Source of the DNA: an uncultured Methanosarcinales archaeon
Lineage (GTDB): Archaea; Nanobdellota; Nanobdellia; Woesearchaeales; GCA-2686295
Reading direction: 5' to 3'
Length of the DNA: 64,000 bases
Assembly (NCBI GenBank): GCA_964402995.1
Contig: CAYOEA010000002.1
Location: 36,558 to 100,557 of the forward strand
Shown here: positions 1,776 through 59,662 of the stretch, one piece after another
Position numbering within the stretch: position 1 is the stretch's first letter
Layout: each line of letters opens with the position of its first letter
The notes under the pieces: generated by a model
What the model saw: only the letters and a program-made list of their open reading frames with translations
What the model was told of the DNA's origin: nothing
Databases searched by the model: none
Program-made: the position numbers and the translations under genes

Positions 1776-2330
1776 TTGAGAGCACGACGAGACGACAAAA
1801 AAGAGAAATATAGAGATTACAATAGAATAAGTGCTCAAAGACTCGAAAAAGATCAAGATAAACTCAAATTACAACTTCTAATTGAAACATTAACTTCAAA
1901 GTACAATATAGATCCTAAAGAACTACTTTTGGAAGTAGAAAAAGATAGTCTAATTCCAACCAGCATATTCTCAGAAAAATTAAGCACATTAGAAACAGTC
2001 GTCAAATATCTAAAAGAAAATAACGGATTAAAAAATAAAAAAATCGCAGAGCTTGTCGGAAGAGATTCAAAATCAGTATGGCAAGCATATAATTCTTCAA
2101 AGAAAAAACAAGCAGAAAAAATCATTGTGAGCGATATAAAGCACACATTCCCAATTTCTATTCTTAAAAACAAGCAGCTCAGCGTTCTAGAAAACGTCGT
2201 CGCGTATCTCAAAGAACAAGGACTGCAAAACAAAGAGATTTCTGAGTTAATTAAACGTGACCAGAGAACTATTTGGACTGTGCTAAACAGAGCTAAAAAT
2301 AAACGAGGAGGAAATGAAAACATTAGGTAA
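1776..2330 (+). CDS. small protein with two internally repeated HTH-like modules (putative DNA-binding regulator)
   Basis: Two ~55-aa repeats: …LETVVKYLKENNGLKNKKIAELVGRDSKSVWQAYN and …LENVVAYLKEQGLQNKEISELIKRDQRTIWTVLNR. These resemble sigma-70 region 4 / LuxR-type HTHs. Its stop overlaps the start of the giant gene (co-transcription likely). Confidence 0.5.
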   Translation: MRARRDDKKEKYRDYNRISAQRLEKDQDKLKLQLLIETLTSKYNIDPKELLLEVEKDSLIPTSIFSEKLSTLETVVKYLKENNGLKNKKIAELVGRDSKSVWQAYNSSKKKQAEKIIVSDIKHTFPISILKNKQLSVLENVVAYLKEQGLQNKEISELIKRDQRTIWTVLNRAKNKRGGNENIR

Positions 2331-5300
2331 TAAAATCGGACGCCTGGAAAAAGAATTCACACTCCTACATAGTTCTAAGAAGAATCTGTTAGCACAGAAA
2401 AGAAGAAAGGAAATCACCAAGAAAGATCATGATTTCCATAAAAAAATAAACAATAGTGAAAGTCACAAAAAAGCATACCATAAAGAAATTAGTGAGCAGA
2501 TAAACACTGCAAAAATAGAAAGAGAAAGAAGAAGAGAAAGCAATAAAGAAAGAGAAAGAAAACCTGCAATTATTTTGATGATTGGATTAATAGTAATCTT
2601 AAGCACATTAGTAATTGCAAACTTTGAAGGAATAACGGGGTTTGCAACATTTACCAGAGAACAAACATTAGTCATAGAAATGAATGAAAGTTATGGACCT
2701 GGACAATATGAGATTGAATTAGATCTAGAAAATGCAACCAGCCTGAGAGTTAGTGGAATAGGCACAGGAGAGGGAAGAATAAAAGTCTTGCTTGAAATGA
2801 ACGGAACAAATCTAACAGTATTAGATAGATATGTGAATGAAGAAGGAAGAAATAATTTAATTACAGGAATGGTTGTTGGAGATGAATTTACACTACTAGA
2901 AGATATGCTAGAAAATAATGCGAACGAAGAAGTAATAGAAGAAGAAAATATCACTGAAATAGTTGATAATATAGAAACTAATAATGAAACAATAGAAATT
3001 GTGGAAGAAAATAATACAAGCACAAATGCAACAACTAATGAAACAATTAATGAAAACATAAGTGCAAGTATAAATGAAAACATAACAAATAATACCAGCT
3101 CAAATATTACAGATATAAACATAACAATCCCTATTGAGCTAAATACTAGTGAAGAACTAAACATCACATTAAATGAAAGTATAAACTTGAGTTTAAACGA
3201 TACAATAGAAATAGATAATGAACTAAATATTACATTAAATGAAAGTAACAATGAGTCTACAAACATAAGTACAAATGTGACGAGTAACACCACAAGCAAG
3301 GTTACAACCAATGTAACGACTAATACTAGTATGAATTTGACAGTTAATGCTACGACTAATATTACAAGTAATATTACAAGCAATTTAACAAGCAATATAA
3401 GTGCAAACATAAGTGAAAATATAACTAGTAATGCAAGCTCAAATATTACAGACATAAACATAACAATCCCTATTGAGCTAAATACTAGTGAAGAACTAAA
3501 CATTACATTAAATGAAAGTATAATTGAAGAACTAAAAACGATATTTGAAGATGAATGTTTAGAAACATGTGTTGCAACAATATCCAATGCTAAACTAATA
3601 ATCATAGTTGAAGACATGGACTTTACATTAACTCAGATTGTTTATACTAAAAAAATAGATAACAAACCCCCAGTACAAACTAAAAACTTAGAAAACATAA
3701 GCTTCTACAAAGAATATGAAATAAATGCAAGCGAATATTTTGCAGACCCTGACGGAGATGAACTAATCTATGATGTAAAAAGATTAGATGATATAAGAAC
3801 AGTAATTATTGGAAATAGAATAATCTTTAGAACAAATACTACTGGAACATACGAAACTTATGTCTACGCAACAGATGGAGGAAGTTTAGTTAAGAGTAAT
3901 ACATTTACAATTAGAACTGGACTAGAAGAAAATGTGAGTTTAGTGACAGAAAAATCAATAAAAGAAAATGTAACTCAACTACAAGCAGAAATTGGTAAAC
4001 CAGTTAAATGGATTAAAACAGTACAATTAGATAATATTACAGACACAATAATTAACTTACCTGAAAGTTCAAGAAATATAATTGTAAAAGACAACAACAA
4101 CAAACAAGTAAAAGAAGAAAAAATTAGTGTTGTAGAAAATAAAACAAGAAGAACATTAATAGAATATGAAGTAGATAAAGAAATTGAATTAATCAAAAAG
4201 AAAATAGAAAAAGCAGATAAGAAAGATAATTCAAAAGAATCAGGAAAACTAAAATCAAGTCTCATCAAACTAAAAGTAAAAAAACAAGAAATAGTTAGTG
4301 GACAAAAACTAACAGATAAAGGAGAAGAAACTACAGGATCAAAAATACTAAATAGCATCAGAACAACTGTTGCAAACTCAGACTTAACTGGAAGAATAAT
4401 ACAAGAAATACCAGATGCAAAACTAGATCCAAGCATAAAACCAATTGAAGAAGCAACTATTATTCCAGAAGATAAAATAATCGTGATTGAAGATGAACTT
4501 CTTGAAGAAAACATTGTTGAAATTGTAGAAGAAATTATCGAAACAAATGAAACAATAGTAATTGAAGAAAATGTTAAAGAAATAGTAAATGAAACTGTAG
4601 AAAAAATTACTGATATAATTGAAGTAATAGAAGAAGAAAATATTACAACGATTAATTCAACAATTGATGTTGAACTAAATAGCACTTCAGAAATAAAAAT
4701 TATTGAAGAAGAAAATAATACATTTCTAACAAATATTACAGAAACAAATAACACAACAAGAAACGCAACAATCCAAATAGAAAATAATACGAAAGAAATT
4801 ATTGAAGAAATAATTAATGAAACTAATAAAACAAATGAAACTATAATAGTTGAAGAAATTATTGAAGAAGAAACGCTAATAGAAACGCCTGATATAACAC
4901 AAGAAATAATTATTAGTGAAGAAGTGATAAATGAAACTGAAGACATAATAATTGGAGAAGAAAATAATTATAATTCACCAACAAATATTGAAGAAGGAAT
5001 AGGAATTATAATTGAAGAAACAGCTGAAGAATATATCATAGAGTATGAAACGGAAGCTCCAGAAATTATAGAAGAAGAAATTAATGAATATAAGAAGAGA
5101 GTTACAATTAGTTCCACATTACACTACACAGAAATCTTATCCTACACAAACATAACACCATCACCAAAAGAAAGCATAGGATTACACTGGTTAGTAAACG
5201 GAAGCAGAATAGAAATGAAGAACATCACTTATGTGGATGCAAATGAAGATGGTCTGGTTGAAAAAATAGCATGGATCACACCACACTTATCAAACCAAAC

Positions 5301-8214
5301 ATTCGAAATTACAATCACAGTTCTGAATGTACAAAGTTACCCTCTAGTTGGAGCATATTGGACTGTTAGGTTAAATACTAGCGGACAAGCAGACTTAGAA
5401 ATTACACCATTTAACTACACCACATTCTGGCCAGAACCAAACGACTTTGGAAACTTAGAACATGACTTAGAATTTGTTAACTTTAGTTGTGGAAATACAA
5501 TGTTAAATGATCAACTATGGTTTACAACAAATGTGAGTTGTGCTGAATTAAATAATATTAGTTGTTATTATGAAAATGAGAGTAATAGAACAATTGCAAA
5601 GTATGATGAATTAATGCAAACAAATCTTTCAACTTGGATGGAATCAATAATTTTATTCAACTACACTTGTGATGAAAATGTTAGTTTATGGACTGATAGA
5701 GTAAAAACACCAGGAGCACACTATATTAACTTCACATTCGGGCCAAGCAGTGCACATGCACAAAACTGGGCTGTAAAGAGCGCCACATCTATAACCACTA
5801 ACGTCACAGTCAATATTAGAAGACCAGGCGGAACAAATGTGATTACAGGAGGTTTCATGACTCTAAGCGGCACAAGCGGGGATACAGAAGAATGGCACAA
5901 CACAACATGGACTTATGATTACTCCAAAGACTGCCAAGAAGAAGGAGACTATGAATTATATGTAGAAGTACTAAGTGAAGGAAATTCAGAAACTCAAAAA
6001 GACATAAGTGGACTTTCAGAAGCAATAACTATGTGGGTCGATCAATGTACAATTGCAGGACTTGGATATGCAGATTGTAGAGTTCATGTATCAAGTAAAA
6101 ACACGAATGCAGACAAAGACTTTGGTACAAGACTAGATTTAATGAATAGTAATTGTAATATCACAAGTGTAACGCACGAAGGATCAGAGTACCATACAAC
6201 AGAAGGACTAAATAGTTGTACTGGTGGAGAATGTGGAACTTGGATAGAAATATACCATGACGTTGGAACAAGCGACAATACAGACGATACTTACTTCGAT
6301 ATAAGATGTGATGATGGAGCTGATGATAACACTCCAATGATGATGGATTTAGCAGAAACATGCGGACCTTCAAGTTGTGGAGAAGCAACAGTAGGACTTG
6401 GAGGATATGATGATTGTTCAAATCCAACATGTACAGATGGGTACACTTACATTGGAGATGATAGTGTAGAATCACTTGGAGGATTCACACTCATAACTTA
6501 TGAAATAGGAATCTTAGATACATGGGATTGGAATACTGTAACAACATACAATATAGATTGGGACTCAAGTCAAGAAGATTGTGACTGTTACAAAGGAGTA
6601 GGATATTGGAATATTGGTGGAGATGTAGTAACTTGTTGTGAAGATGATGGAAGTGAAAATAAAACAACAAGAAATGTAGATGAAAGTACAATAGATAATG
6701 GATATACAGATAATACAAGCGATGATGGATGTTGTGATACAAATGATAAATGTGTAGATACAAGTATTTGTTATATATCAGGCGATGTTAGCACAGACAT
6801 AGATAGTGATGGAGATGAAGATTATTGTAATGCTGGAACATGGTTTGATTGTAATACAGACTCAGAATGTGCAATAGGAATATTCTGTAATGCAACTAAT
6901 GATTGTGAAGTATCATACATAAACTTAAGTTATGAATTACCAACACCAACAACAAATACAATTCAAATTAACAATCAACAAATAATTAATGTAAGTGTTA
7001 GTTCATATGGAAGCACAGTAGACTCATGTACGCTAGAATGGAATGGTATAAATGAATCAATGGGGAAAATCGGAAGCGGAACAGAAGTAAGTTGCAATAT
7101 TACAAAAACAACTATTGATGGAACAACTTATAATTACAAAGTCTTTGCAAATAATTCAGTTGGAATAATAAATAATACTGCTCTAAGAAGTTTCACAGAG
7201 AATAGTTTACCAACAATAACTTACCATAACATAACACCTGTTGCACCAGATACAACTGATGACTTAAATTGTTCATTTACACTTATAGATTCAGAAAATA
7301 ATAGTTTAATTGCATATTATCAATGGTATAATGGTACAAATCAAACATTATCAGGATCAGTTCCAGTAACAAGTGGAATCATAGGCTCAACAATCCTAAG
7401 CGCAGAAAATACAAACAAAGATGAAAACTGGACTTGTGAAATAACACCTTATGACAACTATGAAAATGGAACTGCAAGTAATATATCTAGAATCATAAAT
7501 AATAGTGTCGCATCGGTAACATTGTTAACGCCTACTGATGGACAAACATTAATAGAATATACTAATAGAACACCAAGACTTACTTGGACTGCAAGCGATC
7601 CAGACGGAGATAATATGAGTTACACTATATGGATATCTGAACAATCAGACTTTAGTACAATTAATCAAACAACAAGCGGAATTTCAGATATAAAATATAC
7701 TATGAATGATCTTAAAGTGGACACAATATATTATTGGATAGTTGAAGCATTTGATGGAGTTTCAAGAGTAAATGCCACTTCCGAGTTCAACTTCACAATA
7801 CAAAGTTACGAATCAATAACATTTGTAGTTGATACAGTAAACTTCCCTGAATTAGAAATTGGAGAAACAAACGATACAGACACAGATGCAATCACACCAT
7901 TTAAGATTAGAAATACAGGAAACGTTTTTGTGAACTTAAGCATAAATGCAAGTGAACTATGGGATGGTGCGAGTGCAGCCATACCAAGTGTATACTATAG
8001 ATTTAAGGCCGATGAAGTAAGTGGTGAAGAAGGAGCATTTACAACCGGAAGCAGCACTATGAGTTGGACTAACATGGTTTCAACAGCCACATCGTTCATT
8101 AAAGACTTGAACTTTGACTATGATACAGATGAAGCAGAAATTGATCTTTATCTGACAGTACCTCCACATGAAATTGCAGGTCAGAAAAATTCAACAATAA
8201 GTATAAGCACATAG
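2314..8214 (+). CDS. giant (1966 aa) membrane-anchored surface protein with a sequon-dense stalk, Ig/PKD-like domains and Cys/Asp-rich modules
   Basis: The N-terminus is basic, followed by a TM/signal-anchor PAIILMIGLIVILSTLVIANF. A long run of N-x-S/T sequons follows (NITSNITSNLTSNISANISENITSNASSNITDINIT…). Later segments include DPDGDELIYDV and TWTASDPDGDNMSYTIWI (PKD/FN3-like). Aa ~1230-1530 is a Cys- and Asp-rich block (CEDDGSENK…CCDTNDKC…). Confidence 0.8.
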   Translation: MKTLGNKIGRLEKEFTLLHSSKKNLLAQKRRKEITKKDHDFHKKINNSESHKKAYHKEISEQINTAKIERERRRESNKERERKPAIILMIGLIVILSTLVIANFEGITGFATFTREQTLVIEMNESYGPGQYEIELDLENATSLRVSGIGTGEGRIKVLLEMNGTNLTVLDRYVNEEGRNNLITGMVVGDEFTLLEDMLENNANEEVIEEENITEIVDNIETNNETIEIVEENNTSTNATTNETINENISASINENITNNTSSNITDINITIPIELNTSEELNITLNESINLSLNDTIEIDNELNITLNESNNESTNISTNVTSNTTSKVTTNVTTNTSMNLTVNATTNITSNITSNLTSNISANISENITSNASSNITDINITIPIELNTSEELNITLNESIIEELKTIFEDECLETCVATISNAKLIIIVEDMDFTLTQIVYTKKIDNKPPVQTKNLENISFYKEYEINASEYFADPDGDELIYDVKRLDDIRTVIIGNRIIFRTNTTGTYETYVYATDGGSLVKSNTFTIRTGLEENVSLVTEKSIKENVTQLQAEIGKPVKWIKTVQLDNITDTIINLPESSRNIIVKDNNNKQVKEEKISVVENKTRRTLIEYEVDKEIELIKKKIEKADKKDNSKESGKLKSSLIKLKVKKQEIVSGQKLTDKGEETTGSKILNSIRTTVANSDLTGRIIQEIPDAKLDPSIKPIEEATIIPEDKIIVIEDELLEENIVEIVEEIIETNETIVIEENVKEIVNETVEKITDIIEVIEEENITTINSTIDVELNSTSEIKIIEEENNTFLTNITETNNTTRNATIQIENNTKEIIEEIINETNKTNETIIVEEIIEEETLIETPDITQEIIISEEVINETEDIIIGEENNYNSPTNIEEGIGIIIEETAEEYIIEYETEAPEIIEEEINEYKKRVTISSTLHYTEILSYTNITPSPKESIGLHWLVNGSRIEMKNITYVDANEDGLVEKIAWITPHLSNQTFEITITVLNVQSYPLVGAYWTVRLNTSGQADLEITPFNYTTFWPEPNDFGNLEHDLEFVNFSCGNTMLNDQLWFTTNVSCAELNNISCYYENESNRTIAKYDELMQTNLSTWMESIILFNYTCDENVSLWTDRVKTPGAHYINFTFGPSSAHAQNWAVKSATSITTNVTVNIRRPGGTNVITGGFMTLSGTSGDTEEWHNTTWTYDYSKDCQEEGDYELYVEVLSEGNSETQKDISGLSEAITMWVDQCTIAGLGYADCRVHVSSKNTNADKDFGTRLDLMNSNCNITSVTHEGSEYHTTEGLNSCTGGECGTWIEIYHDVGTSDNTDDTYFDIRCDDGADDNTPMMMDLAETCGPSSCGEATVGLGGYDDCSNPTCTDGYTYIGDDSVESLGGFTLITYEIGILDTWDWNTVTTYNIDWDSSQEDCDCYKGVGYWNIGGDVVTCCEDDGSENKTTRNVDESTIDNGYTDNTSDDGCCDTNDKCVDTSICYISGDVSTDIDSDGDEDYCNAGTWFDCNTDSECAIGIFCNATNDCEVSYINLSYELPTPTTNTIQINNQQIINVSVSSYGSTVDSCTLEWNGINESMGKIGSGTEVSCNITKTTIDGTTYNYKVFANNSVGIINNTALRSFTENSLPTITYHNITPVAPDTTDDLNCSFTLIDSENNSLIAYYQWYNGTNQTLSGSVPVTSGIIGSTILSAENTNKDENWTCEITPYDNYENGTASNISRIINNSVASVTLLTPTDGQTLIEYTNRTPRLTWTASDPDGDNMSYTIWISEQSDFSTINQTTSGISDIKYTMNDLKVDTIYYWIVEAFDGVSRVNATSEFNFTIQSYESITFVVDTVNFPELEIGETNDTDTDAITPFKIRNTGNVFVNLSINASELWDGASAAIPSVYYRFKADEVSGEEGAFTTGSSTMSWTNMVSTATSFIKDLNFDYDTDEAEIDLYLTVPPHEIAGQKNSTISIST

Positions 8215-17772: not shown

Positions 17773-18360
17773 ATGATTAGACGTATTGAGAAAAAGAAAG
17801 AAAAAATGAAGAAAATTTGGATGGGAGCAATCACCATATTCTTAATGGTTATAAGTATGCTTGGAGTCATGATGTACAATGACGATGAAGGTTCTGATTT
17901 AGAATATAATGGAACTAAATTTAGCTATCAAAACAATGTTTTTTCAGCAAAGCTTGGCGGAAAAACACAAATCTTTGGAAATTTACCTCAAGAAATTGAA
18001 AATCTAACTGTTAGCGCAGGACTTAAAGAACAATTATCAAAACAAACAATATACTTAACATTTGATCCAAATTCAAGAGATCAAGATTTATCATACATGG
18101 ATTTAATTAGAAAAGACTTTTCAGATAATCTAAACTCAATTGTTATCAATGGAATTACAGCTAACTCAAGCATATATCAATTACCTATCATTGATTGTTA
18201 TTATGCAAGTAATTTAACTAGTGTTTTCAAATTCGAAGTAAGTAATGAAACTAGAATCGATATAGAGGGAGATTGTGTTATTCTAAAAGGAGAAAATATT
18301 GAACTGATTAAACTTAGAGATTACGTCTTATATACTTATTACGATGTAATTGTAAAATAA
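17773..18360 (+). CDS. hypothetical N-terminally anchored secreted protein (paralog A)
   Basis: Single N-terminal TM (ITIFLMVISMLGVMM). C-terminal …NETRIDIEGDCVILKGENIELIKL… aligns with …ETSRIRSEGRCIILEYAQNESIKV… of the next gene. Confidence 0.5.
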   Translation: MIRRIEKKKEKMKKIWMGAITIFLMVISMLGVMMYNDDEGSDLEYNGTKFSYQNNVFSAKLGGKTQIFGNLPQEIENLTVSAGLKEQLSKQTIYLTFDPNSRDQDLSYMDLIRKDFSDNLNSIVINGITANSSIYQLPIIDCYYASNLTSVFKFEVSNETRIDIEGDCVILKGENIELIKLRDYVLYTYYDVIVK

Positions 18361-18396: not shown

Positions 18397-19029
18397 ATGG
18401 CTGGAAAACTAGAAAAACAAGAAAAAGAAATGGAAAATAAAACAAGCAAACAATTAATTCAGTTTATCGTGTTTGTTTTAGTAATAGCAGCCATTGCTTA
18501 TGCGGTCTATAAGTTTACAGCACCTGCAGACACTCATCAATATGATAAGTATAATGGCTATGACTTTATGTATGATGAAGAACAAAAACTGTGGTTTTCA
18601 ACATTACAAATAGAAGAACAACCATTCATCATCCCATTTTACTTTCATCCAAAAGACTTAGAATACATACCGGTTCAGAAAGATATTGAAGATACATTAT
18701 ATCAAAAGAAACCAAAGAACGTAATCATAACTTTACCTTTTAATGATACATCAAGCATAGTAATTGCAGCAATAGAACTATCAAAAATTACAGGTGAAAG
18801 ATTTAAGATTCTAGAGATTCCAACAAGTAGCGCTTTTAATGAATATCTACAAGGGTTTCCACTTGCAACATGCGATAATTCATCAGATGATACACTTGTT
18901 ATTAACTTTGAAAAAAGTGAAACTAGCAGAATTAGAAGTGAAGGAAGATGTATTATACTTGAATACGCACAAAATGAAAGCATAAAAGTTGCAGATAATT
19001 TAGCATATCACATTCTAAAAATAATGTAA
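18397..19029 (+). CDS. hypothetical N-terminally anchored secreted protein (paralog B)
   Basis: N-terminal TM (LIQFIVFVLVIAAIAYAVY). Shares C-terminal motifs with 17773..18360. Confidence 0.5.
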   Translation: MAGKLEKQEKEMENKTSKQLIQFIVFVLVIAAIAYAVYKFTAPADTHQYDKYNGYDFMYDEEQKLWFSTLQIEEQPFIIPFYFHPKDLEYIPVQKDIEDTLYQKKPKNVIITLPFNDTSSIVIAAIELSKITGERFKILEIPTSSAFNEYLQGFPLATCDNSSDDTLVINFEKSETSRIRSEGRCIILEYAQNESIKVADNLAYHILKIM

Positions 19030-21637: not shown

Positions 21638-22162
21638 ATGTTTATGTTAGTTTTAATTTATGGAAATTTAGGAAGTGGAAAATCAACCCTTGCTAAAAAA
21701 TTTTGTAAGGAAGAAAACTTTATTCTAATTCGATTTGATGAAATGATGTTTAAGTATAAAGATAGAGTTTATTCTAAAGATGATGATTTTTTACTTGGAA
21801 AAGAAGATATACTCTTGGTTTATGAAGATATGCATAAACTTGCTTTAAAAGAATTGAAGAAAGGTAAAAGTGTGGTTTTAGAATCTTTGTATATGAAAGC
21901 ACAAAGAGAAAAAGCTAGAAAAATTGCAAAAAATATTAGTGTGGATTTTAAAGTTGTAGAAGTGTATTGTGATGAAACAAAAATTAAAAAAAGATTGACA
22001 CTAAGAAAAAAAGAAGATCCACAAACACCAGGATTTAAACTTTATTTAGAATATAAAAAATTATTAGATGTAGAAGATGATTGTATAAAAATTGATACTA
22101 GTTCTAAAAATGTAGCTGATTGTTATAAACAATTAGTTCAAGAAATAAAAAGAAAAGAATAA
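21638..22162 (+). CDS. P-loop NTPase / small kinase-like protein
   Basis: Walker A GNLGSGKST at the N-terminus. 174 aa. Confidence 0.45.
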   Translation: MFMLVLIYGNLGSGKSTLAKKFCKEENFILIRFDEMMFKYKDRVYSKDDDFLLGKEDILLVYEDMHKLALKELKKGKSVVLESLYMKAQREKARKIAKNISVDFKVVEVYCDETKIKKRLTLRKKEDPQTPGFKLYLEYKKLLDVEDDCIKIDTSSKNVADCYKQLVQEIKRKE

Positions 22163-22188
22163 AAAAAATAAAGAAAAAATAAATTAAT

Positions 22189-23148
22189 TTAGTTAATGTG
22201 TTTTACTAAGACATTAGTTGAAACTGATTCTTCATAACCATAGTCAATAGTAACATCAACAACTTTAACTTTATCAATTAATTCAAGAACAGGTTGAGTA
22301 CATCTAACTTGTCTTTCACCAGCAGTTAATCGGATTTCTCCTCCATAACCGGTAGTTCCAACAGTAACTCCACCATTCATACCAGTACATGTTAAACCAG
22401 CCATACCAGCATCAACAGTAAGATATAACTTATTTTCATAAATAGGAGCATCATCACAACTAACACTTGCTCTTGAAAGTTTACCATTACCAATGTTCTT
22501 AACAGTTAAAGTAAAAGTTACTTTATCAGCGCCAGCAGTATACTCATCAAAACCTACAACTTGAATAGGTCCGCCTGAGTTCTGAACATTTTTAGCTCCA
22601 GAAACAACACACACATCAAGATTTTGTGAATCTAAAAGATCTTCTTTAATACATAAAGGTGCTGTAGCTTTAGTTTGATAATTGTAACAAACATCAACCA
22701 TGAAAGGGAATGCATTGTTTCCTGAAAGAGAATTTTGGAAATTCAATTCACCAGTAGTTGGAATTGTAACATAAACAGGTGGTGAAGTAATAGCTGCACC
22801 AGAATCTGGATTGATTTCATTTCTTAAGATATCCTCTAAAGGATGAACTTGAGCAATAACAGCAGAAGTTACACCAAAATCAGCAGGATCAAATCCTTTA
22901 AGTGATAAAGTGATATCTTCTTTTGCAATTTCATATTCTCCTTCATTCTCTAACTTAATAGTTACTAAGAATGGATTTTCTCCGCCATCAGTTACTTCCG
23001 CAGGAGGTTCACCCTCAGCAAAAGCAATAATCAGGCCTGTAGTTCCGCCTAAAAAAGTTCTTTCATTTGAAGCAACTGTTCCGCCACTATTAGTACAGGA
23101 CGCAAGTGCCAATAAAAGGACTAAAACGATAATTAATTCTTTTTTCAT
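22189..23148 (-). CDS. secreted lipobox-containing surface protein, paralog family member 1
   Basis: Signal peptide with lipobox-like LALASC. Family motifs VCYNYQTKATAPLCIKED…C and GGPIQVVGFDEY…TLTVKNIGNGKLS. Confidence 0.65.
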   Translation of the reverse strand: MKKELIIVLVLLLALASCTNSGGTVASNERTFLGGTTGLIIAFAEGEPPAEVTDGGENPFLVTIKLENEGEYEIAKEDITLSLKGFDPADFGVTSAVIAQVHPLEDILRNEINPDSGAAITSPPVYVTIPTTGELNFQNSLSGNNAFPFMVDVCYNYQTKATAPLCIKEDLLDSQNLDVCVVSGAKNVQNSGGPIQVVGFDEYTAGADKVTFTLTVKNIGNGKLSRASVSCDDAPIYENKLYLTVDAGMAGLTCTGMNGGVTVGTTGYGGEIRLTAGERQVRCTQPVLELIDKVKVVDVTIDYGYEESVSTNVLVKHIN

Positions 23149-23209
23149 TTTGTTTTTTAAACCTCCGATATATAAAATAAATACGTGTGAATGTAAATGT
23201 TAAAAATTA

Positions 23210-24523
23210 TTAGCCAGCTCTTTTTATCCTAACATCTCTTCTTTGACTTTCTGAGTACCCATACCAAAGTTCAATGATTAAAGGAGCTTTGTAAGCTGAT
23301 TTTGCAGTGGCATATTCCATATCATAAGTGCAAGTAAATTGACCTCTACCATTAATCATTCTAATAACATAATTATCAGGCGAACATCTTAATTTGAAAG
23401 GACTACCTGACATACGAATATCACCAATGAAAACTATATCTAAATCTTGAGCACCAAGACGACCAGGATAATAAGGACTACATAACTCTAAATGTAATGG
23501 ATTGATAACTTTACCATCACCAACATTAGCTACATCAATATTGAAAATAACACTTCTAGGTGTGCTTTCTTGACTAACGCCAGTAATTGCAACTGGACCA
23601 CCTTGTGAACGAGACATTTGAACCGAACCTGGAACACAAGCTTTTGCTGTTTCAGAGTATGGATCAGGATCTATGCAAACAATAGGGGCTGCGTAAGTTG
23701 AATAAGCGTAACAAGTTGTGAAAAGGAAAGTTACATCTGTAGAATCAAGTCCTGCAGGCCAAGTTTTAATTTCACTAGGGAAAGATATAACAGTTGATTC
23801 TCCGCCTGGATAATTATAATTATCAGGAGCTAACAAGAAAGACTTACCATTAAATCTATCAAATGAAACCTGATCTAAAATCATTAACAAACCTCTACCA
23901 TGATGAATAAAATTAAGACTGAAACCAGACAAATCCATGTTAAAAGCACCAGTTGACCAATCATAAGCAATATCTAATTCAGGAAGACCTTCACATTCGC
24001 TAGTTGTAAGAATATTACAGAAAGCATCAATTAAATTATCAAGACCAAAACCATCAGTACCAAGATAACCTCCGCCATCGTCGCCAAAAGTACAACCAAT
24101 CAGACCAGATATTGATTCAAAATTAGTGAAAGAAAAACTACTAAAATCAAGTTGACAATGATCAAAAAAACCACCAAGTGTTCTTGGAATATTCATCCCA
24201 TCTACATTAATAAGTGAAGGATCATAACCAGAAACATATAAACCTCCTCGAGTCCAGGAAGCACCAACATTTCTTAATACAACAGATATATCAAAACCAT
24301 TATATTCAGGACCTTGCGCATTACCATAATAATATAATCTTGAAGGAGGAGCACCAGGTTCTACAATCATACGAATACCCTCTGAACCTTGATAATAATT
24401 TTCAGTTTTAGGGTTAGAATTTGGATTTTGTCCACCTATACCACTACAAGAAGAAAGGAGTAAAGATAATATTAAAAGACTAATTATAAATAGTTTCCTC
24501 GACATATACAGTATATCTTGCAC
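23210..24523 (-). CDS. secreted lipobox-containing surface protein, paralog family member 2
   Basis: The ORF opens MQDILYMSRKLFIISLLILSLLLSSC (lipobox-like LLSSC). The real start is probably at the seventh codon (MSRKLF…). Family motifs CYAYSTYAAPIVCIDPD…C and QGGPVAITGVSQE…NIDVANVGDGKVIN. Confidence 0.65.
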   Translation of the reverse strand: MQDILYMSRKLFIISLLILSLLLSSCSGIGGQNPNSNPKTENYYQGSEGIRMIVEPGAPPSRLYYYGNAQGPEYNGFDISVVLRNVGASWTRGGLYVSGYDPSLINVDGMNIPRTLGGFFDHCQLDFSSFSFTNFESISGLIGCTFGDDGGGYLGTDGFGLDNLIDAFCNILTTSECEGLPELDIAYDWSTGAFNMDLSGFSLNFIHHGRGLLMILDQVSFDRFNGKSFLLAPDNYNYPGGESTVISFPSEIKTWPAGLDSTDVTFLFTTCYAYSTYAAPIVCIDPDPYSETAKACVPGSVQMSRSQGGPVAITGVSQESTPRSVIFNIDVANVGDGKVINPLHLELCSPYYPGRLGAQDLDIVFIGDIRMSGSPFKLRCSPDNYVIRMINGRGQFTCTYDMEYATAKSAYKAPLIIELWYGYSESQRRDVRIKRAG

Positions 24524-24636
24524 TATGAATATATAAGTTTTTCTAAGATTTAGTAGTAAAAATGTTAAAAAAAGGCAAAATGCCTAAGTTTTGACAAACA
24601 TAAACTAAACTTGTTGAATAAAAATAATTTAAGAAA

Positions 24637-26598
24637 TTATACATTCTCATAACAATTGTTTGATGTTGAATTAAAAGCACAAGAACGAAATTTACAAGAA
24701 TCATTTGAACAAGAATCTTCATCAGACCCGTAAGAAGAACAAGTAGTTCCACAAACAGTACAAATATCTGAAGAATAGCTCCAATAATGATCCGAAGGAG
24801 GATTAAAGTTACATGGATTATCATCACACTCTTCAAAAGAATAATAATCAATTCCCATACTACAATCCAAACATTTACTATGATCTAAAGACCAAAACCT
24901 TGAACCTGTAAACTCACAAGGATTATCATCACATTCAGACCTACTATAATCGTAAGTAATAACTGGTGGAGAAAGTATTTTTTTAACTTCTGAACAATCA
25001 AAACATTGAGTTTGATCTTTGGACCAATAAGTTTTTGCTTCTACTACCTCACAAGGATCAGTTTCACAAATACCTTCAATAACATAATCTTTTGCCTCAT
25101 CAGTACCAGAACAAGAGTAACATGCACCTTTACCTAAACCAGGATCAAACCAAATACATTCACTTGGAAATCCGCAAGAATCTTTTTCACAAGAATCTTC
25201 ATTATCATAAACCATGCATTTATTTGTATTTTTTTCAGGACAAGCATTACATCTATCTTTACCAGATGTAGTCCAATGACAATCAGAAGTTTTTACACTA
25301 CAAACATTCGCACTACAATCTATTTCTCCATCATAAGAACCGCAATAAGATACTTTGTCACATTTTGAACAACAAACAAAGCTATCAGCACAATAATTAG
25401 TTTCTGTAATGCAATCACTAAAAGAAATTGTTCCAATAGAAGTATCTCCATTAATTAAAGTAGTATTATCAATACAAGACCAATCAGATTCTTTAAAAGC
25501 ATCACCACATTCAAGATAACCTTTTGAGCAAGCTTCACATTTAGACACACAACCATTCCCAACAGGGTATTCATAAGGCTTACAATTTTGAATTTTTGAG
25601 ATATTTCCAAAATAATGACCATCCCAAGTTCTAATAATTTCAACATCTTGAGATAAAATGTTTATATAATTAAAATCGATTTGAACATCTAAATTTGTTA
25701 GGTAATTTAAATTTTGATTGTAACCTTGATTATATTCACAAAGAAGATGTATTTCATTATCCTTAAATCTAAAAGCATAAGGATCATTAGCAGATCTACA
25801 AGTTAATTCTTCCCCACCTAAAGTAGCCTTTATATTAACTGTATCCCAAAGTGCTCTATTTGTTGACTGTGCATAACCACAATCTTGATCAGGAGATACA
25901 ACAGATCCTTTACCAACATTTGATACAGTCATAAAGAAAACAGGTTTAAGATATTGTCCAAAATTTATTAATTCATAATGTAACTCGGTAATTGCAACTG
26001 GTGAGCCTTGACCTGAAGAATAAGTTTTATCTTGAACCTCGCAAGCTTTAGTTCTAATATCGTCAATAGTATAAGTATCAATACAAACTTCATCAGATAG
26101 AACTGTTCTATAAGGATAACAAATAGCAACATAAAGCTCAGTCCCAGGACTTTCTTTTTGTCCCTTAATTGTCTTTGCAGTAAGTCGTGGTAAATAATGG
26201 TAAATTGAGTCACCTTTAGGAAAAATAGGTGATTTTCCTTCAAGAGTTATTTTCTGCCAATCAGCAGCAAGACTGTTTAATGTTTGAATTGATTTTGTTC
26301 CATTAAAATAAAATTCATCAAACTCCCAAGTAATCAAAGCAGGTTTTGATGTATTAATTGAGAATGCACCTTTGTTTGAAATTAAAAGACCAACAGGAAA
26401 CTCAGAATCTTCACGAACTTGATCAGGAGGTGAATTTCTTAAAAATTCAAAAACTAAACCATCTTTTCCTGAATTAAAATTTATATCTTTAACATTTGGA
26501 TCATAATTATTACTGCCAGAGCCATTTTGACCAGCACCACATGCAGTAAGCATAAACATAGAGATAAATAGTATTAATAATAGTGATAGTTTTTTCAT
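24637..26598 (-). CDS. secreted lipobox-containing surface protein, paralog family member 3, with C-terminal tandem Cys-rich modules
   Basis: Signal peptide FMLTAC. Family motifs ICYPYRTVLSDEVCIDTY…C and GQGSPVAITELHYE…MTVSNVGKGSVVS. The C-terminal ~270 aa holds at least 5 repeats of a ~28-aa Cys module (CDDNPCEF…W…C.DCS). Confidence 0.65.
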   Translation of the reverse strand: MKKLSLLLILFISMFMLTACGAGQNGSGSNNYDPNVKDINFNSGKDGLVFEFLRNSPPDQVREDSEFPVGLLISNKGAFSINTSKPALITWEFDEFYFNGTKSIQTLNSLAADWQKITLEGKSPIFPKGDSIYHYLPRLTAKTIKGQKESPGTELYVAICYPYRTVLSDEVCIDTYTIDDIRTKACEVQDKTYSSGQGSPVAITELHYELINFGQYLKPVFFMTVSNVGKGSVVSPDQDCGYAQSTNRALWDTVNIKATLGGEELTCRSANDPYAFRFKDNEIHLLCEYNQGYNQNLNYLTNLDVQIDFNYINILSQDVEIIRTWDGHYFGNISKIQNCKPYEYPVGNGCVSKCEACSKGYLECGDAFKESDWSCIDNTTLINGDTSIGTISFSDCITETNYCADSFVCCSKCDKVSYCGSYDGEIDCSANVCSVKTSDCHWTTSGKDRCNACPEKNTNKCMVYDNEDSCEKDSCGFPSECIWFDPGLGKGACYSCSGTDEAKDYVIEGICETDPCEVVEAKTYWSKDQTQCFDCSEVKKILSPPVITYDYSRSECDDNPCEFTGSRFWSLDHSKCLDCSMGIDYYSFEECDDNPCNFNPPSDHYWSYSSDICTVCGTTCSSYGSDEDSCSNDSCKFRSCAFNSTSNNCYENV

Positions 26599-28532
26599 TA
26601 TCGAACCCTCATTTGAGTGCCTTTCTTTAAAGTATAAGCATAATCAACATTAACAGCAACTGTTACAGTACGTTTATCCATAGTACTTCCAGATAAAAAA
26701 CTATTCAGACCATTCTTTGCAACTAAATCACAAGAAACCGCATCTATTTTATAATCTAACAATCCGCCTGCGCCAAGAAAAGCAACTCCAAATGAATAAG
26801 TGTTTTCAATTGGATCGTGATAAATTGGATCATAAGTACAATTAATTAGTTCAGTATCTGAAGGAACAGTAACAGTTAATGAACGAATATAATTTAATTT
26901 TCCTTGAGGCCAAACATTCTCTAATTGAACGGTAAATAAATGAATAAAATTATTCTCATCATCTAAATCAGTAGGCATGTCTAAACCAATAGGTAGATTT
27001 TTCTTAGATAAACGAATAGCTATCGGACCATCAGAAGAACTTGCTTCTGCAACACGAGTTTTCAAATCTAAAAAATTGTAAATATCTTTTCCTTTCTTAC
27101 CAATAACCACGTTATCAGTGTATACATAGGCAACTGTTGATGTTTGAGTAAAGAAAAATGAAATCTCAAAAAACATATTATGATACCCTGGTTTTATAGT
27201 ACCATTTCCAAATCTACATCTTAACTCATCAGATCCTTCATAAATAATAGTTGACTTTGCAGGACTAACCATGCCAAAAATTTTAAGTTTATCTTTTTCA
27301 ATATAACAAGAATGATAAGTTTGAACCGCTCCTTCAAAACTCTTTGCACTAATATCAGCCAAAACATCTATTTTTTTATTAGCATATAATGTCTCAGATA
27401 AAATACGAACATTAGTTAAATAAATACCTGGTTGTTCACCTTCATTATTTTCAGTTGTAGAACCATATGGATCATAAGCAATAGTATCATTAATTTTATT
27501 TTTAAAATTTTTAAATCCTGAATTAATTGAATCAGCTACTTGCTTTGCATTGCCCCAAACAAAATCTTTAGCGACATACAAACCACTCATAGTATCTGAG
27601 CCTTCAACATTAATATTAGGTGAAACATCACTTGCAAAAGCATCAGATGTTAATAATTGAATACATAAAAGTAATATAAATAATTTGAGAATTCCAGTGC
27701 CCCATTTATGAATCTTAGAATCAGGTTCAGAAGTATAAACTAAATACCAAGGCCAAACTGGAAAGAATATTAAGAGGCTAATTAAAGTTGTATTTCCTTT
27801 AGCAAAATAAGTCACTAATGGAGGAACAGCCAAAGCTGCTAACGATACAAAAATTATTGTCCAGGTTGTAGAAGATAAACCTGATTTGTAAATAAAAGTT
27901 ACTGCAACAAAAGTCAAACCTAAATATAAAAGAATAATAGGAATAATTGAAGATGGATTTCGACCAAAATTAAATATAAAAGCATCTGCTGCATGTAAAA
28001 GTAAAGTTAAGAGTAAAAAAAAACCAATATTAGAAGTTGTACCAGATGATTCTCCAGATGACTTGACTGAATTAGCAGCACCTTTTGCCAAACCTTTAGC
28101 TTTTGAACCTAAAAATTTAGTAAGAGCAAAAGCTCCACCACCAACAATAGCCCCTACTTTTAGGGCTTTACCTAAACCTTTCTTTACTTTATCAGATTTA
28201 GATGAACCAGATGAACTAGGGGAATCAGATGAACCAGAACCGCTGCTTGTTTTAATATTACTTAAATCAATACCTGAAATGATTGATTCATAAGAAGATT
28301 TATCTGCACCTGCAGCTTCAAGTTCTGAAAGGATATTTTTTATTTCGGTTTTATCTTTATTTGCATTCTCTGCATACAATTTCGCCATGCTAGAATCTTC
28401 TTTTCTTTGGGAAGAAATATACTTTTCTTCATTATATTGTAAACTACTAACTGCTGGATATAAATCATTAATTAACTTAGAATGGTCTGCATTACTAGAA
28501 GTGTTCTCACCACCTTCTTGATCTTCGGACAT
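26598..28532 (-). CDS. polytopic membrane protein with cytoplasmic S/G-rich N-terminus and extracellular C-terminal domain related to the paralog family
   Basis: ~170-aa low-complexity N-terminus, ≥4 TM helices (aa ~170-290). The C-terminal domain contains DGPIAIRLSKKNL…FTVQLENVWPQGKL, comparable to the GGPxxI…N.G.GK motif. Confidence 0.55.
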   Translation of the reverse strand: MSEDQEGGENTSSNADHSKLINDLYPAVSSLQYNEEKYISSQRKEDSSMAKLYAENANKDKTEIKNILSELEAAGADKSSYESIISGIDLSNIKTSSGSGSSDSPSSSGSSKSDKVKKGLGKALKVGAIVGGGAFALTKFLGSKAKGLAKGAANSVKSSGESSGTTSNIGFFLLLTLLLHAADAFIFNFGRNPSSIIPIILLYLGLTFVAVTFIYKSGLSSTTWTIIFVSLAALAVPPLVTYFAKGNTTLISLLIFFPVWPWYLVYTSEPDSKIHKWGTGILKLFILLLCIQLLTSDAFASDVSPNINVEGSDTMSGLYVAKDFVWGNAKQVADSINSGFKNFKNKINDTIAYDPYGSTTENNEGEQPGIYLTNVRILSETLYANKKIDVLADISAKSFEGAVQTYHSCYIEKDKLKIFGMVSPAKSTIIYEGSDELRCRFGNGTIKPGYHNMFFEISFFFTQTSTVAYVYTDNVVIGKKGKDIYNFLDLKTRVAEASSSDGPIAIRLSKKNLPIGLDMPTDLDDENNFIHLFTVQLENVWPQGKLNYIRSLTVTVPSDTELINCTYDPIYHDPIENTYSFGVAFLGAGGLLDYKIDAVSCDLVAKNGLNSFLSGSTMDKRTVTVAVNVDYAYTLKKGTQMRVR

Positions 28533-28539
28533 GATAAAA

Positions 28540-29733
28540 TTAATCCTCCTCTACTACAACTCGCAGTTCAGCTATATCAACAGAACTAGTAGGAATTAAT
28601 TCAATAGAATTTGTTCCTGGTTTAATATAATCATCCAATACTTTTTCATATGATAGTTCATCAGTGCTAATATGTTTTCTAACACCATTAATGATATATT
28701 CTAATTTCTTTTCATCATCATTAACAAATCTAACTTCCATAGTTATATTATAGTCTTCATCAAGTTCATTAGTATAATTTCCATCAAAGAAAATATCTTC
28801 ATCAACTTCAAAATAATAAACAGGATAAATCATTTCTTCAAGTCTTGTTGTGACAGAAACTCTATCAATAAGATATGAACCTTCTGAAACAATAAATTCT
28901 AATTCATTTTTATCTACCATAGCTTCGTCTTTATCAAGAGCAATAACCTGATAAACACCACAATCACCAAGACCAGAATAAGCTTCTTCACCATTAAAAT
29001 AAATCTTTAAAGTTCCTGCATCTGCAAGGCTACAATCAGGATCAAATCTGAATTTAATTTCTTCAATATTCCTATATTCTGTTTCTGAAAGATAAAAGAA
29101 TTGTCTGCTTCTACTATTTGTTAAATCTAAAACTTGACCAATAATACTAAGATCAGTTAATTCATAACGATTCGTTCTCCAGAACGCAAAACCAGGACTT
29201 GAAACTCTAAAAGTTAAAAGATTTTCATCATCTAAATAATCTTGCGGCAACATGATAGGGTTTGGTGTGCCCTTAGCGATTTTGCCATTAAATATTTCAT
29301 AACCATTAAGGAAGACTTCAAGATTTCCTAAAGATTCTTTTACATTAAAAGATAAAGCCATATCAGTTGTTAATCTCTTTTTAATTTCAAAAGAAAGATT
29401 AAACTCTTTTGTGCCTGAAAGACCTTTTTGAACATAAATAGATTTAATTGTTTTAATATTAGTGCCAACATTTTCCGCATTTATCCTAAATGAAGGTAAA
29501 TCATGTTCTCGATAATCAAATTTTAAGTAATCTAAACGACCAACACGTTCTTTAAGCAATAATGGATCATAGTCAATATCATCATCATCTGAACCAGAAG
29601 TATAATTTTCTTCACCTAAAAGTAGGGCTCTTTCCTCAGGAGGAAGTAATAAAATATATAGAACCATGATGACTCCAATAAGAATCAATAGAACAGCCGC
29701 ACTACCCGCTGCTTTTCCTTTTTTGTTATACAT
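28540..29733 (-). CDS. type-II (N-in, single TM) membrane-anchored extracellular protein, first gene of the surface operon
   Basis: N-terminal TM AAVLLILIGVIMVLYILLL followed by a ~350-aa extracellular beta-rich region. Only an 8-bp gap separates it from the downstream gene. Confidence 0.5.
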   Translation of the reverse strand: MYNKKGKAAGSAAVLLILIGVIMVLYILLLPPEERALLLGEENYTSGSDDDDIDYDPLLLKERVGRLDYLKFDYREHDLPSFRINAENVGTNIKTIKSIYVQKGLSGTKEFNLSFEIKKRLTTDMALSFNVKESLGNLEVFLNGYEIFNGKIAKGTPNPIMLPQDYLDDENLLTFRVSSPGFAFWRTNRYELTDLSIIGQVLDLTNSRSRQFFYLSETEYRNIEEIKFRFDPDCSLADAGTLKIYFNGEEAYSGLGDCGVYQVIALDKDEAMVDKNELEFIVSEGSYLIDRVSVTTRLEEMIYPVYYFEVDEDIFFDGNYTNELDEDYNITMEVRFVNDDEKKLEYIINGVRKHISTDELSYEKVLDDYIKPGTNSIELIPTSSVDIAELRVVVEED

Positions 29734-29858
29734 GAGTTTAAATACTATAATTACAATATATAAATTTATTGGTTTTGTACGACGCTAAAAAAACATATAA
29801 ACTAAGAACAATAACAAAGTAATATAAAACAAAAATACTTGATAATAACTAATAAAAA

Positions 29859-31835: not shown

Positions 31836-32657
31836 TTGGAGGTAAAATCAATGATAGTTAAAGAAGAATTCTTAAGCAAATTGAGAAGGTATTTCTCACT
31901 AAACCTGTATGAAGTAAAAGTTTGGACTGCATTATTATCAAGAGGAGTGAGTACAGCAGGAGAATTAAGCGATATTGCAAATGTTCCTAGAAGTAGAAGT
32001 TATGACGTTCTAGAAAGCCTAGAGAAAAAAGGTTTTGTTATAATGAAATTAGGAAAACCAATTAAATACTTAGCTGTTCCACCAAAAGAAGTTGTTGAAA
32101 GAGTGAAAAAGAATGTTAAAACAAAAGCAGATGAACAAGTTGCAAAACTTGAAAATCTAAAAACAACTGAAGTAATAAAGGAACTAAACTCATTACACAC
32201 ACAAGGAGTCGAATTAGTAGAACCAGCAGATTTATCAGGTTCACTTCGAGGAAGACACAACTTATATAATCATTTAGAGCTAACAATTAAGAACGCTGAA
32301 AAAACAGTAACTATGATGACAACTTCAAAAGGGCTAATGAGAAAAGTCGAAGGACTAATGCCAGTCTTTGAAGAAATTAAGAAACGAGGCGTTGAAATTA
32401 GAATTGCAGCACCATTAACAGAAGAATCAATGGATGCAGCAAAAGCACTAAAAGGTATTGCAGAAGTTAGACACACTGACAAAAATGCAAGATTCACAGT
32501 TGTAGACGGTCAAGAAGTAGTATTTATGGTAATGGACGATTCAGAAGTACATCCAACATATGATATTGGAATCTGGATAAACACACCATTCTTCGCAAAA
32601 GCACTAGAAGACCTATTCGACATCGCTTGGAAAGCACTAAAGCCAATTAAGGTTTAA
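31836..32657 (+). CDS. TrmB-family transcriptional regulator (paralog 1)
   Basis: N-terminal wHTH …VKVWTALLSRGVSTAGELSDIANVPRSRSYDVLESLEKKGFVIMKLGKPIKYLAV…, then a coiled-coil linker and a C-terminal domain. This is TrmB architecture. Confidence 0.7.
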   Translation: MEVKSMIVKEEFLSKLRRYFSLNLYEVKVWTALLSRGVSTAGELSDIANVPRSRSYDVLESLEKKGFVIMKLGKPIKYLAVPPKEVVERVKKNVKTKADEQVAKLENLKTTEVIKELNSLHTQGVELVEPADLSGSLRGRHNLYNHLELTIKNAEKTVTMMTTSKGLMRKVEGLMPVFEEIKKRGVEIRIAAPLTEESMDAAKALKGIAEVRHTDKNARFTVVDGQEVVFMVMDDSEVHPTYDIGIWINTPFFAKALEDLFDIAWKALKPIKV

Positions 32658-58828: not shown

Positions 58829-59662
58829 TTAGTTTTTAAGATTTAGATTCTTAGTAGCTAAACCAAAAAGACTTGAAAGTGTTTCACTAAAGAACTCTGT
58901 ATTTGCCCAAATACCAACATCATAATTCGGATGAACAGTATTATCGTCCATTAACATAAACATTACTTGTTTATCATCAATAATACAAAATCTTCCTTTA
59001 CCTGTATAATCAATCACTTTAGCAAATTTTTCCATGTTTTTAAGTAAATCTTTAGTTTTAGAAGTTAAAGCAGTTGCAATTTTTATTGAAACTCCTCTTT
59101 TATTTGCTTTTTCAAATGATTTTGAAAGTAAAGATAATTTTCTTAAGGCACCTTCTTCAGATGTAACAAGTAAAACTGATTTTTCTGCACTTTTAATCAT
59201 CATATCTAAATGTGAATAAAGTCTATCTCTGCCTTTTAATGATGCAGTAATTTCAGCAGGATCAACAAGTGATACTCCTTCTGTATGAAGTGTATTTAAT
59301 TCAGTTAATAAATCTGATTCTTTAAGTTTATTAAGACTAGATAATTGAGATGTAGTATCATCTTGGATTTTTTTCTTAACTCTTTCCAAGACTTCTTCTG
59401 GAGGAACTGCTAAGTATTTTATAGGTTTTCCAATTTTCATTATGATAAAACCTTTTTTTTCAAGGCTTTCTAGAACGTCATAACTTCTACTTCTTGGAAC
59501 ATTTGCAATATCACTTAATTCACCTGCAGTACTTACACCTCGTGAAAGTAAAGCGGTCCAAATTTTAGCTTCATAAGTATTCAAACCAAAATCTTTGATT
59601 TTTTTTAAAAATTCATTTTGAACGAGCATCTTTAGTTTATCTCCTTTAACCGAAGTTATCAT
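58829..59662 (-). CDS. TrmB-family transcriptional regulator (paralog 2)
   Basis: wHTH …AKIWTALLSRGVSTAGELSDIANVPRSRSYDVLESLEKKGFIIMKIGKPIKYLAV… is nearly identical to paralog 1. The coding DNA of this segment is also closely similar between the two genes. Confidence 0.7.
   Translation of the reverse strand: MITSVKGDKLKMLVQNEFLKKIKDFGLNTYEAKIWTALLSRGVSTAGELSDIANVPRSRSYDVLESLEKKGFIIMKIGKPIKYLAVPPEEVLERVKKKIQDDTTSQLSSLNKLKESDLLTELNTLHTEGVSLVDPAEITASLKGRDRLYSHLDMMIKSAEKSVLLVTSEEGALRKLSLLSKSFEKANKRGVSIKIATALTSKTKDLLKNMEKFAKVIDYTGKGRFCIIDDKQVMFMLMDDNTVHPNYDVGIWANTEFFSETLSSLFGLATKNLNLKN

Follow-up and report, generated by a model that had tools for sequence, protein, structure and literature searches.

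A syntenic five-gene cluster encoding membrane-tethered extracellular proteins of undescribed families in Woesearchaeota and Nanoarchaeota

Woesearchaeota and Pacearchaeota possess a module of 51 protein families specific to these lineages, most of them without an assigned function, which includes large extracellular proteins with a lytic transglycosylase domain (SLT), for which binding or degradation of bacterial walls has been proposed (Castelle et al., 2021; PMC8204110). The genes of glycoside hydrolase family 23 (GH23) in Woesearchaeota have been taken to indicate that these archaea prey on bacteria (Vigneron et al., 2022; PMC9723730). Both studies treat single SLT proteins and describe neither the cluster of five genes presented below nor its paralogous lipoprotein module or a partner such as G1. 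Conserved cell-surface protein clusters (Csc) of the Lactobacillales were proposed for carbohydrate utilisation (Siezen et al., 2006; PMC1534035). Here we analyzed a stretch of 64,000 nucleotides (hereafter the window) of contig CAYOEA010000002.1 (assembly GCA_964402995.1, positions 36,558 to 100,557 of the forward strand), which is labelled as an uncultured Methanosarcinales archaeon and placed by GTDB in the Woesearchaeales, and we describe in it a cluster of five minus-strand genes, G1 to G5.

The five products are membrane-tethered extracellular proteins of undescribed families. G3, G4 and G5 each consist of two disulfide-braced beta-sandwich domains, and four of the five proteins share this undescribed module. 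The cluster is chromosomal, specific to Woesearchaeota and Nanoarchaeota (DPANN) and syntenically stable. The reading that we favour, and hold tentatively, is that of a heteromeric, lineage-specific envelope complex that may engage the glycan wall of another cell and, in some lineages, cut it. Like the extracellular SLT (GH23) proteins of Woese- and Pacearchaeota (fam00969/'Module 98'; PMC8204110; PMC9723730), the cluster belongs to these lineages and its products are extracellular and membrane-anchored. Such an SLT domain is present on the long G2 orthologues (918–1,154 aa) of the related loci L012, L019, L021 and L037, whereas the G2 of the window has none. The other families of the cluster fit the description of lineage-specific families without assigned function (PMC8204110). 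The Csc clusters likewise combine several differently anchored beta-sandwich surface proteins with a proposed joint action on polysaccharides (PMC1534035). For both Csc and SusE/F, the likeness to G1–G5 is an analogy only: none of the five proteins matches a WxL, DUF916 or Sus family, the cluster is archaeal and not bacterial, and it has no adjacent transporter or sugar-metabolism genes. SusE/F are surface lipoproteins of Bacteroidetes, to which the same comparison applies.

The five consecutive, co-oriented open reading frames (ORFs) lie exactly where the initial annotation of this stretch had placed them. The window has a GC content of about 30%, and its recognisable genes are archaeal housekeeping genes, i.e. 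a ribosomal-protein operon, SecY, the RFC small subunit, Pelota, both PheRS subunits and TrmB; flanking genes were identified via their translations, and only ten further ORFs were scanned against Pfam. The GC content of the cluster is about equal to that of its flanks. G1 and G2 are separated by 7 bp, G2 and G3 overlap by 1 nt (TAATG), and the gaps G3–G4 and G4–G5 measure 113 bp and 61 bp. Inspection of the sequence shows a TATA-like box TTTATATA (29757..29764, minus strand) 5' of G1. Its end is about 23 nt and its centre about 27 nt upstream of the G1 ATG, inside a 125-bp divergent intergenic region common with Pelota. TATA-like boxes are likewise found 5' of G4 and of G5, and T-runs lie 3' of G3. 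Directly 3' of the G5 stop, oligo-T tracts resembling archaeal terminators (22141..22188, minus strand) overlap the 3' end of a convergent kinase-like gene. As promoter evidence these boxes are weak, the genome being 30% GC. Tight coupling is seen for G1-G2-G3 only, and a single operon for all five genes is plausible but unproven.

G3, G4 and G5 form a set of lipobox-bearing paralogues. The smallest, G5 (22189..23148, minus strand; 319 aa), is a minimal lipoprotein paralogue with two beta-sandwich domains behind a signal peptide ending in LALASC (Cys18). G4 (23210..24505, minus strand; 431 aa from its ATG; LLSSC) differs from it by an insertion of about 110 aa. The mechanical ORF of G4 begins at a GTG at 24523, and the ATG at 24505 is likely the true start because it yields a normal signal peptide, MSRKLFIISLLILSLLLSSC, and a 431-aa product that matches public gene calls. 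In G3 (24637..26598, minus strand; 653 residues), the signal peptide and the two-domain beta-sandwich module occupy residues 1–325 (25624..26598; FMLTAC, Cys20), and a Cys-rich C-terminal tail with 40 Cys occupies residues 326–653 (24637..25623). All three N-termini are Sec-type signal peptides whose lipoboxes agree with the consensus [LVI][ASTVI][GAS]C; lipidation itself is a prediction. The three lipobox signal peptides reported initially are thus real, and a relaxed form of the pattern is kept in 51 of the 56 orthologues. This conservation, with the abundance of lipoproteins predicted in DPANN (Hong et al., 2025; PMC12462473), supports an extracellular location. What G3–G5 share with the archaeal lipobox lipoproteins of the AliA/AliB pathway (PMC12462473) is the signal type, which is an anchoring mechanism and not a functional family.

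The similarity among G3, G4 and G5 is detected pairwise by blastp (46–54 bits) and phmmer (36–44 bits), and over the full length by profile–profile alignment with hhalign (probability 99.9–100%, E 1e-35 to 1e-49). By these sequence comparisons the paralogy is far above chance, so that the shared motifs pointed out in the initial annotation reflect real homology. The lipobox Cys and six more Cys (154, 166, 180, 231, 254 and 283 in G5 numbering) are invariant across the three families, as are the motifs F-x-GG-x-x-G, PP, N-x-GE and C-Y-x-Y. The AlphaFold2 (AF2) model of G5, built from 21 sequences (pLDDT 89.5, pTM 0.81), contains beta structure only; it forms two sandwich domains, and two of its strands are unusually long. 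Searched among 1.84 billion representatives, a profile of the module retrieves 2,973 clusters (50% identity) at E ≤1e-3 and 2,293 at E ≤1e-10. P0135, a member of this paralogue family with 1,612 aa, carries three ConA-like lectin domains as a fusion.

In the tail of G3, a conserved core with 12 Cys (about 100 aa) precedes an array in which C-x2-C ... C-[DE]-x-[DN]-x-C ... W recurs in about 6 units, each about 40 aa long. The tail of the window is the longest seen (328 residues, 40 Cys), and no curated family matched it. The copy number of the repeats depends on the lineage (0, 2, 3 or about 6 repeats of about 40 aa; window, L006, L024 and L028), and across lineages the pattern reads C-x2-C ... 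C-[DE]-x-[DN]-P-C ... W. The 12-Cys core ends in a knottin-like 'NCIFG..LC..GKFCC.KQ'.

G2 (26598..28532, minus strand; 644 aa) is the polytopic platform subunit. According to hydropathy, it comprises a low-complexity, basic cytoplasmic head of about 168 aa (residues 1–168; 28029..28532), about five transmembrane (TM) segments (residues 169–299; 27636..28028) and a 345-residue ectodomain (residues 300–644; 26598..27635). It is the fastest-evolving member of the cluster, and the sequence of its head is not conserved between orthologues. A homologue search with full-length G2, dominated by low-complexity words, found only G2 itself, and its orthologues were collected from the neighbouring loci. 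Pairwise comparison of G2 with G3–G5 gave no significant similarity. At the profile level, residues 500–644 of G2 align with the second domain of G5 (residues 191–316) over 145 residues (hhalign E 7e-4), in register for the GGP, N.G.GK (N.W.QGK in G2), Cys and terminal Y-x-Y motifs. Aligned globally with G5, the entire G2 ectodomain reaches E 5e-5 over 255 columns, and the compact 471-aa G2 of L042, the most divergent locus, matches the hidden Markov models (HMMs) of G3 (E 5e-7) and G4 (E 3e-5). Because of these three profile-level results, we accept the G2 ectodomain as a distant fourth paralogue of the G3–G5 module. The paralogous ectodomain that had been proposed for four members is therefore recovered in G3–G5 by blastp, phmmer and hhalign, and in G2 by profiles only. 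The TM region of G2 matches nothing in Pfam or the PDB, and none of its polar positions is invariant: in the alignment of 18 members, all invariant columns fall in the ectodomain. A role of G2 as an enzyme or transporter is thus unsupported, and the lack of invariant polar residues in the membrane argues for an integral anchor.

G1 (28540..29733, minus strand; 397 aa) is a single-pass, N-terminally anchored protein with three tandem jelly-roll domains resembling carbohydrate-binding modules (CBMs) and galactose-binding domains. Hydropathy places its membrane anchor at residues 12–30 (29644..29700, minus strand). The AF2 model (33 sequences, pLDDT 87) shows a TM helix at residues 10–29, a disordered acidic linker and the three jelly rolls, each bearing an 'LNG-x-E-[IV]-F' motif. 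This model matches carbohydrate-binding jelly rolls and BcsB, the likeness by predicted fold extending to CBM6/29/35, PNGase F and the accessory jelly rolls of GH86/GH2. In contrast to BcsB, the anchor of G1 is N-terminal and not C-terminal, and no BcsA-type synthase lies near the cluster in the neighbourhoods of the related loci L001 and L002; the score of G1 against Pfam BcsB (PF03170) is 12.2 bits, below the cutoff of 21. G1 was also considered as a fifth paralogue of the module and rejected (hhalign E 0.08–0.34). Its N-terminus is conserved, with [KR][GA]Q, small residues and a hydrophobic helix followed by LPPEER. The [KR][GA]Q motif is nearly universal in G1 and stands directly ahead of an uncharged stretch of about 27 residues. 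A FlaFind-type class III motif, [KR][GA][ALIFQMVED][ILMVTAS]x3, is absent from the G1 of the window (KKGKAAGSAAV...) and present in 6 of the 28 intact orthologue N-termini, and this test does not support G1 as a bona fide pilin. Altogether, the architecture put forward in the initial annotation, a polytopic platform with three lipid-anchored paralogous ectodomains and a single-pass anchored protein, is supported.

None of the five proteins reaches a curated threshold in Pfam or NCBIfam, or matches PHROG, PADLOC or the archaeal S-layer families; an anti-phage defence system was rejected on the absence of a PADLOC match. Sequence-profile searches of the PDB with the G5, G1 and G2 families gave nothing significant, and the confident AF2 models resemble solved structures domain by domain only. 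A search with G1 found no relative in 2.9 million viral contigs, and a viral fold search gave TM-scores of at most 0.26. The suggested CARDB/DUF11 likeness does not hold as family membership. CARDB (PF07705) and DUF11 (PF01345, TIGR01451) are all-beta Ig-like sandwiches with an 'x-V-x-N-x-G-x-G' strand motif; the G5 module, also all-beta, may have such an Ig-like fold. The resemblance is limited to a motif of about 25 residues in G5 (207–230), which scores 13.0 bits for CARDB (cutoff 22.7), 14.0 for DUF11 (24.6) and 16.7 for TIGR01451 (24), all sub-threshold, and G2, G3 and G4 match none of these three. Our literature searches found no description of this cluster either. The system is undescribed, as the first view held: it is covered neither by a curated family nor by a solved structure or a paper. 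Relative to the curated databases and the searched literature, the cluster and its protein families are new, while their folds and likely general role are conventional.

Homologues of G5 and G1 derive from metagenome-assembled genomes (MAGs) labelled Woesearchaeota, Nanoarchaeota or DPANN. Using the family HMMs, we found about 15 non-redundant Woesearchaeota/Nanoarchaeota loci in which the five genes follow one another as G1-G2-G3-G4-G5 on the same strand, usually between Pelota and RFC; the cluster is conserved outside the genome of the window. In 15 of 17 loci, G2 and G3 either overlap or have no more than 3 nt between them. In L042, where G1 has fallen to about 30% identity, G1-G2 and only two lipoproteins are present, still beside Pelota. 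Identity to close orthologues is 49–57% for G1, 49–59% for G4 and 51–62% for G5, compared with 52–63% for Pelota, 52–57% for FmrO and 75–79% for RFC; it is about 31–37% for G3 and 23–30% for G2. Several cluster-bearing records (L010, L014, L015, L021, L022 and P0014/P0031) are labelled 'uncultured Methanosarcinales' (binchicken MAGs) or 'Bacteroidota bacterium'. The RFC and Pelota of L021 are as similar to those of the window as are those of Nanoarchaeota-labelled loci, and on this basis the labels look like errors of taxonomic labelling or binning.

Across loci the cluster occurs in two main architectures. In type A (window, L001, L003, L005–L009, L011, L024 and L028), G1 has about 395 aa, G3 carries a Cys-rich C-terminal tail (the 12-Cys core of about 100 aa and 0–6 CxxC repeats of about 40 aa), G4 has the insertion of about 110 aa, and G2 has no extension. 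In type B (L012, L017, L019, L037 and others), G1 has about 557 aa with a 153-residue, 20-Cys insert in its third jelly roll, G3 lacks the tail, G4 has about 310 aa without the insertion, and G2 bears a long C-terminal extension. Intermediates between A and B are seen in L002, L013, L023 and L033. Accessory Cys-rich modules are thus located on different subunits in different lineages. The insert of G1 (L012, L017, L019, L022, L037 and others) sits after the position equivalent to residue 321 of the window G1; it measures 153–165 aa, usually with 20 Cys, and contains two internal repeats 'CG[DE]xDGxCPxGC..D.D[KR]DCC....[YF]WCD'. It is almost confined to loci whose G3 lacks the Cys-rich tail, and L013 has both. 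We detected no homology of the insert to the tail of G3 (hhalign E 0.1); what they have is a largely complementary distribution only.

The C-terminal extracellular extension of G2 contains an SLT domain (PF01464) in L012, L019, L021 and L037, with scores of 22.6–45.7 bits (Pfam cutoff 21.3). The SLT domain of L012 aligns to E. coli MltC and EmtA (E 3e-6), and three of these four, L012, L019 and L037, retain the catalytic Glu of the E-S motif.

We propose that G1–G5 would assemble into a single heteromeric complex at the external membrane face, a view supported by the conserved gene order and by the coupling of G2 and G3. G2, translationally coupled to G3, would be the integral anchor, G3, G4 and G5 would be lipid-tethered, pseudo-equivalent subunits, and G1 would provide a glycan-binding arm. 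The slow-evolving core of G1, G4 and G5 would carry lineage-variable modules, namely Cys-rich repeats (on G3 or inside G1), the G4 insertion and the lytic transglycosylase on G2. This archaeon has no murein of its own, and because a peptidoglycan-cleaving module is found in such an organism, the complex may form an interface with a foreign polysaccharide wall, most plausibly that of a bacterium that serves as host or prey. Where G2 bears SLT, peptidoglycan would be cleaved locally, and the lineage of the window, without SLT, would bind without cutting. The link to glycans or walls is supported by the jelly-roll matches of G1, the SLT domains on G2 orthologues, the lectin fusion of P0135 and the proposals made for the SLT proteins (PMC8204110; PMC9723730).

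Several observations weigh against this reading. G1–G5 of the window have no SLT match in Pfam, a six-frame translation of the 64-kb window contains nothing similar to the SLT segments of the orthologues, and only 4 of 18 G2 orthologues have the domain. In the G2 of L021 (L021:12144-15242) the catalytic Glu is replaced by Thr (AQTSSG) and GLMQ by GLMG, and from its sequence this domain may be inactive and binding-only. Host-contact proteins are usually fast-evolving and mobile. Sequence divergence in G1, G4 and G5 does not exceed that of Pelota, FmrO or a methyltransferase, and the cluster is held in fixed synteny with informational genes. G1 is detached from G2–G5 in L017, L018, L020 and L022, with G3–G5 remaining next to RFC. 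The TATA-like boxes 5' of G4 and G5 would allow several transcripts. The CBM-like fold of G1 is a common superfold, and its glycan-binding role is putative. Interaction among G1–G5 is likewise something that we infer, as its support comes from gene context and sequence. The host attachment suggested in the initial annotation accordingly has two sides, since the SLT fusions on G2 orthologues and the CBM-like G1 support it indirectly while the housekeeping-like conservation and fixed synteny weaken it; it is still a hypothesis.

The same conservation favours the main rival, which we consider unlikely, that G1–G5 have a structural role in the archaeon's own envelope. They would form or anchor its wall layer, for instance as S-layer base, spacer or scaffold of a pseudo-periplasm, and would serve its integrity and not contact with another cell. 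The identity of G1, G4 and G5 (49–62%) is in the range of that of Pelota (52–63%), and the cluster occupies, in one copy, a fixed position between Pelota and RFC in many genomes. Three pseudo-equivalent lipid-anchored paralogues with a TM paralogue would suit the base of a repeating lattice, and their invariant disulfides suggest a rigid structural module. However, no S-layer family is matched by the five proteins, Woesearchaeota MAGs have separately annotated, highly expressed S-layer genes (PMC11606122), and the window itself encodes a better candidate for the canopy, a sequon-rich, type-II anchored giant protein of 1,966 aa described below. SLT on the G2 of some lineages also has no obvious role in a murein-free archaeal envelope. 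These SLT fusions, the CBM-like G1 and the lectin-domain fusion of P0135 could also serve the capture of glycans or nutrients, in the manner of SusE/F or of the Csc clusters that offer a precedent (PMC1534035). The surface lipoproteins and G1 of such a system would bind environmental polysaccharide or murein debris, trimmed by SLT in some lineages, and so supply a scavenging metabolism without a dedicated host. We find this distinctly improbable, as no transporter, ABC ATPase or glycoside hydrolase is found in or next to the cluster in the window and related loci, the TM region of G2 has no invariant polar residues, and the cluster is not near carbohydrate-metabolism genes.

The N-terminus of G1 brings in a further alternative, in which the five would be accessory or tip proteins of a structure like a type IV filament (TFF). 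G1 would be a prepilin-like protein that a prepilin peptidase processes and that is exposed on a pilus or next to it, and G2–G5 would be accessory components. DPANN do encode TFF systems (bioRxiv 10.64898/2026.04.22.720090), and the near-universal [KR][GA]Q ahead of the uncharged stretch, with the strict FlaFind-type motif in 6 of 28 orthologues, would fit. The G1 of the window and most orthologues fail this motif, though, and the G1 helix is broken by LPP after about 20 residues. G3–G5 bear lipoboxes and not class III signals. Among precomputed Pfam matches within ±10 kb in L001, L002, L042 and L043 there is neither a TFF ATPase nor a platform protein or A24 peptidase, and no TFF ATPase, platform protein or prepilin peptidase was seen in the window, where Pfam coverage of the ORFs is incomplete. 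We regard a filament-associated role as very improbable. The least probable explanation, and one that we clearly disfavour, is that there is no system at all, the genes being unrelated adjacent surface proteins or part of a mobile or viral island. The TATA-like boxes 5' of G4 and G5 would permit independent transcription. Order and orientation are nevertheless conserved down to about 30% identity, the G2/G3 coupling is conserved, and four of the five proteins share a domain. The viral side is countered by the negative PHROG and PADLOC comparisons, by the viral contig and fold searches reported above, and by a GC content about the same as that of the flanks. We return to the complex at the wall of another cell as the favoured reading. 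A bolder version of it makes the cluster the core host-contact machine of the Woesearchaeales, which would dock on the bacterial wall and open the peptidoglycan where the SLT of G2 is active; this version is rather unlikely.

Elsewhere in the window, positions 2314–8214 (plus strand) encode the 1,966-aa protein mentioned above, with a basic coiled-coil-like N-terminus, one TM segment (residues 84–102) and a huge extracellular part. That part holds long repeats rich in N-x-[ST] sequons ('NITLNES...', 'TSNITSN...') and 34 Cys. No Pfam family scores above cutoff on this protein, which may be a giant surface protein, S-layer protein or adhesin. A pair of neighbouring proteins with N-terminal anchors, of 195 and 210 aa (17773–18360 and 18397–19029, plus strand), with no Pfam match, are weak mutual paralogues (23% identity, E 1.6e-8). 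A pair of neighbouring genes with products of comparable length (201 and 194 aa) occupies the corresponding position in L001, the likeness being one of size and position. Two TrmB-family regulator genes of the window (31851–32657, plus strand; 58829–59662, minus strand) share an apparently identical helix-turn-helix stretch of about 35 residues (WTALLSRGVSTAGELSDIANVPRSRSYDVLESLEKK), which suggests from sequence that a gene was duplicated recently or that gene conversion took place.

Few uncultured archaea are as widespread as Woesearchaeota and their relatives and, to our knowledge, neither their hosts nor the components of their cell–cell interface are known. The organism of the window, a tiny member of the DPANN/Woesearchaeota, is probably symbiotic. 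The cluster is a small, defined and near-universal set of surface proteins and as such a testable handle on that interface, and the SLT link in some lineages points to bacterial partners specifically. It also defines a large protein family without a curated model (about 3,000 clusters at 50% identity), for which a confident structural model now exists. If G1–G5 were instead a structural part of the envelope, this would be the first description of a membrane-proximal wall layer of this group. If the host-contact version were true, the cluster would be the first apparatus for attachment and wall breaching to be molecularly defined in a DPANN lineage that is parasitic on bacteria and not on archaea.

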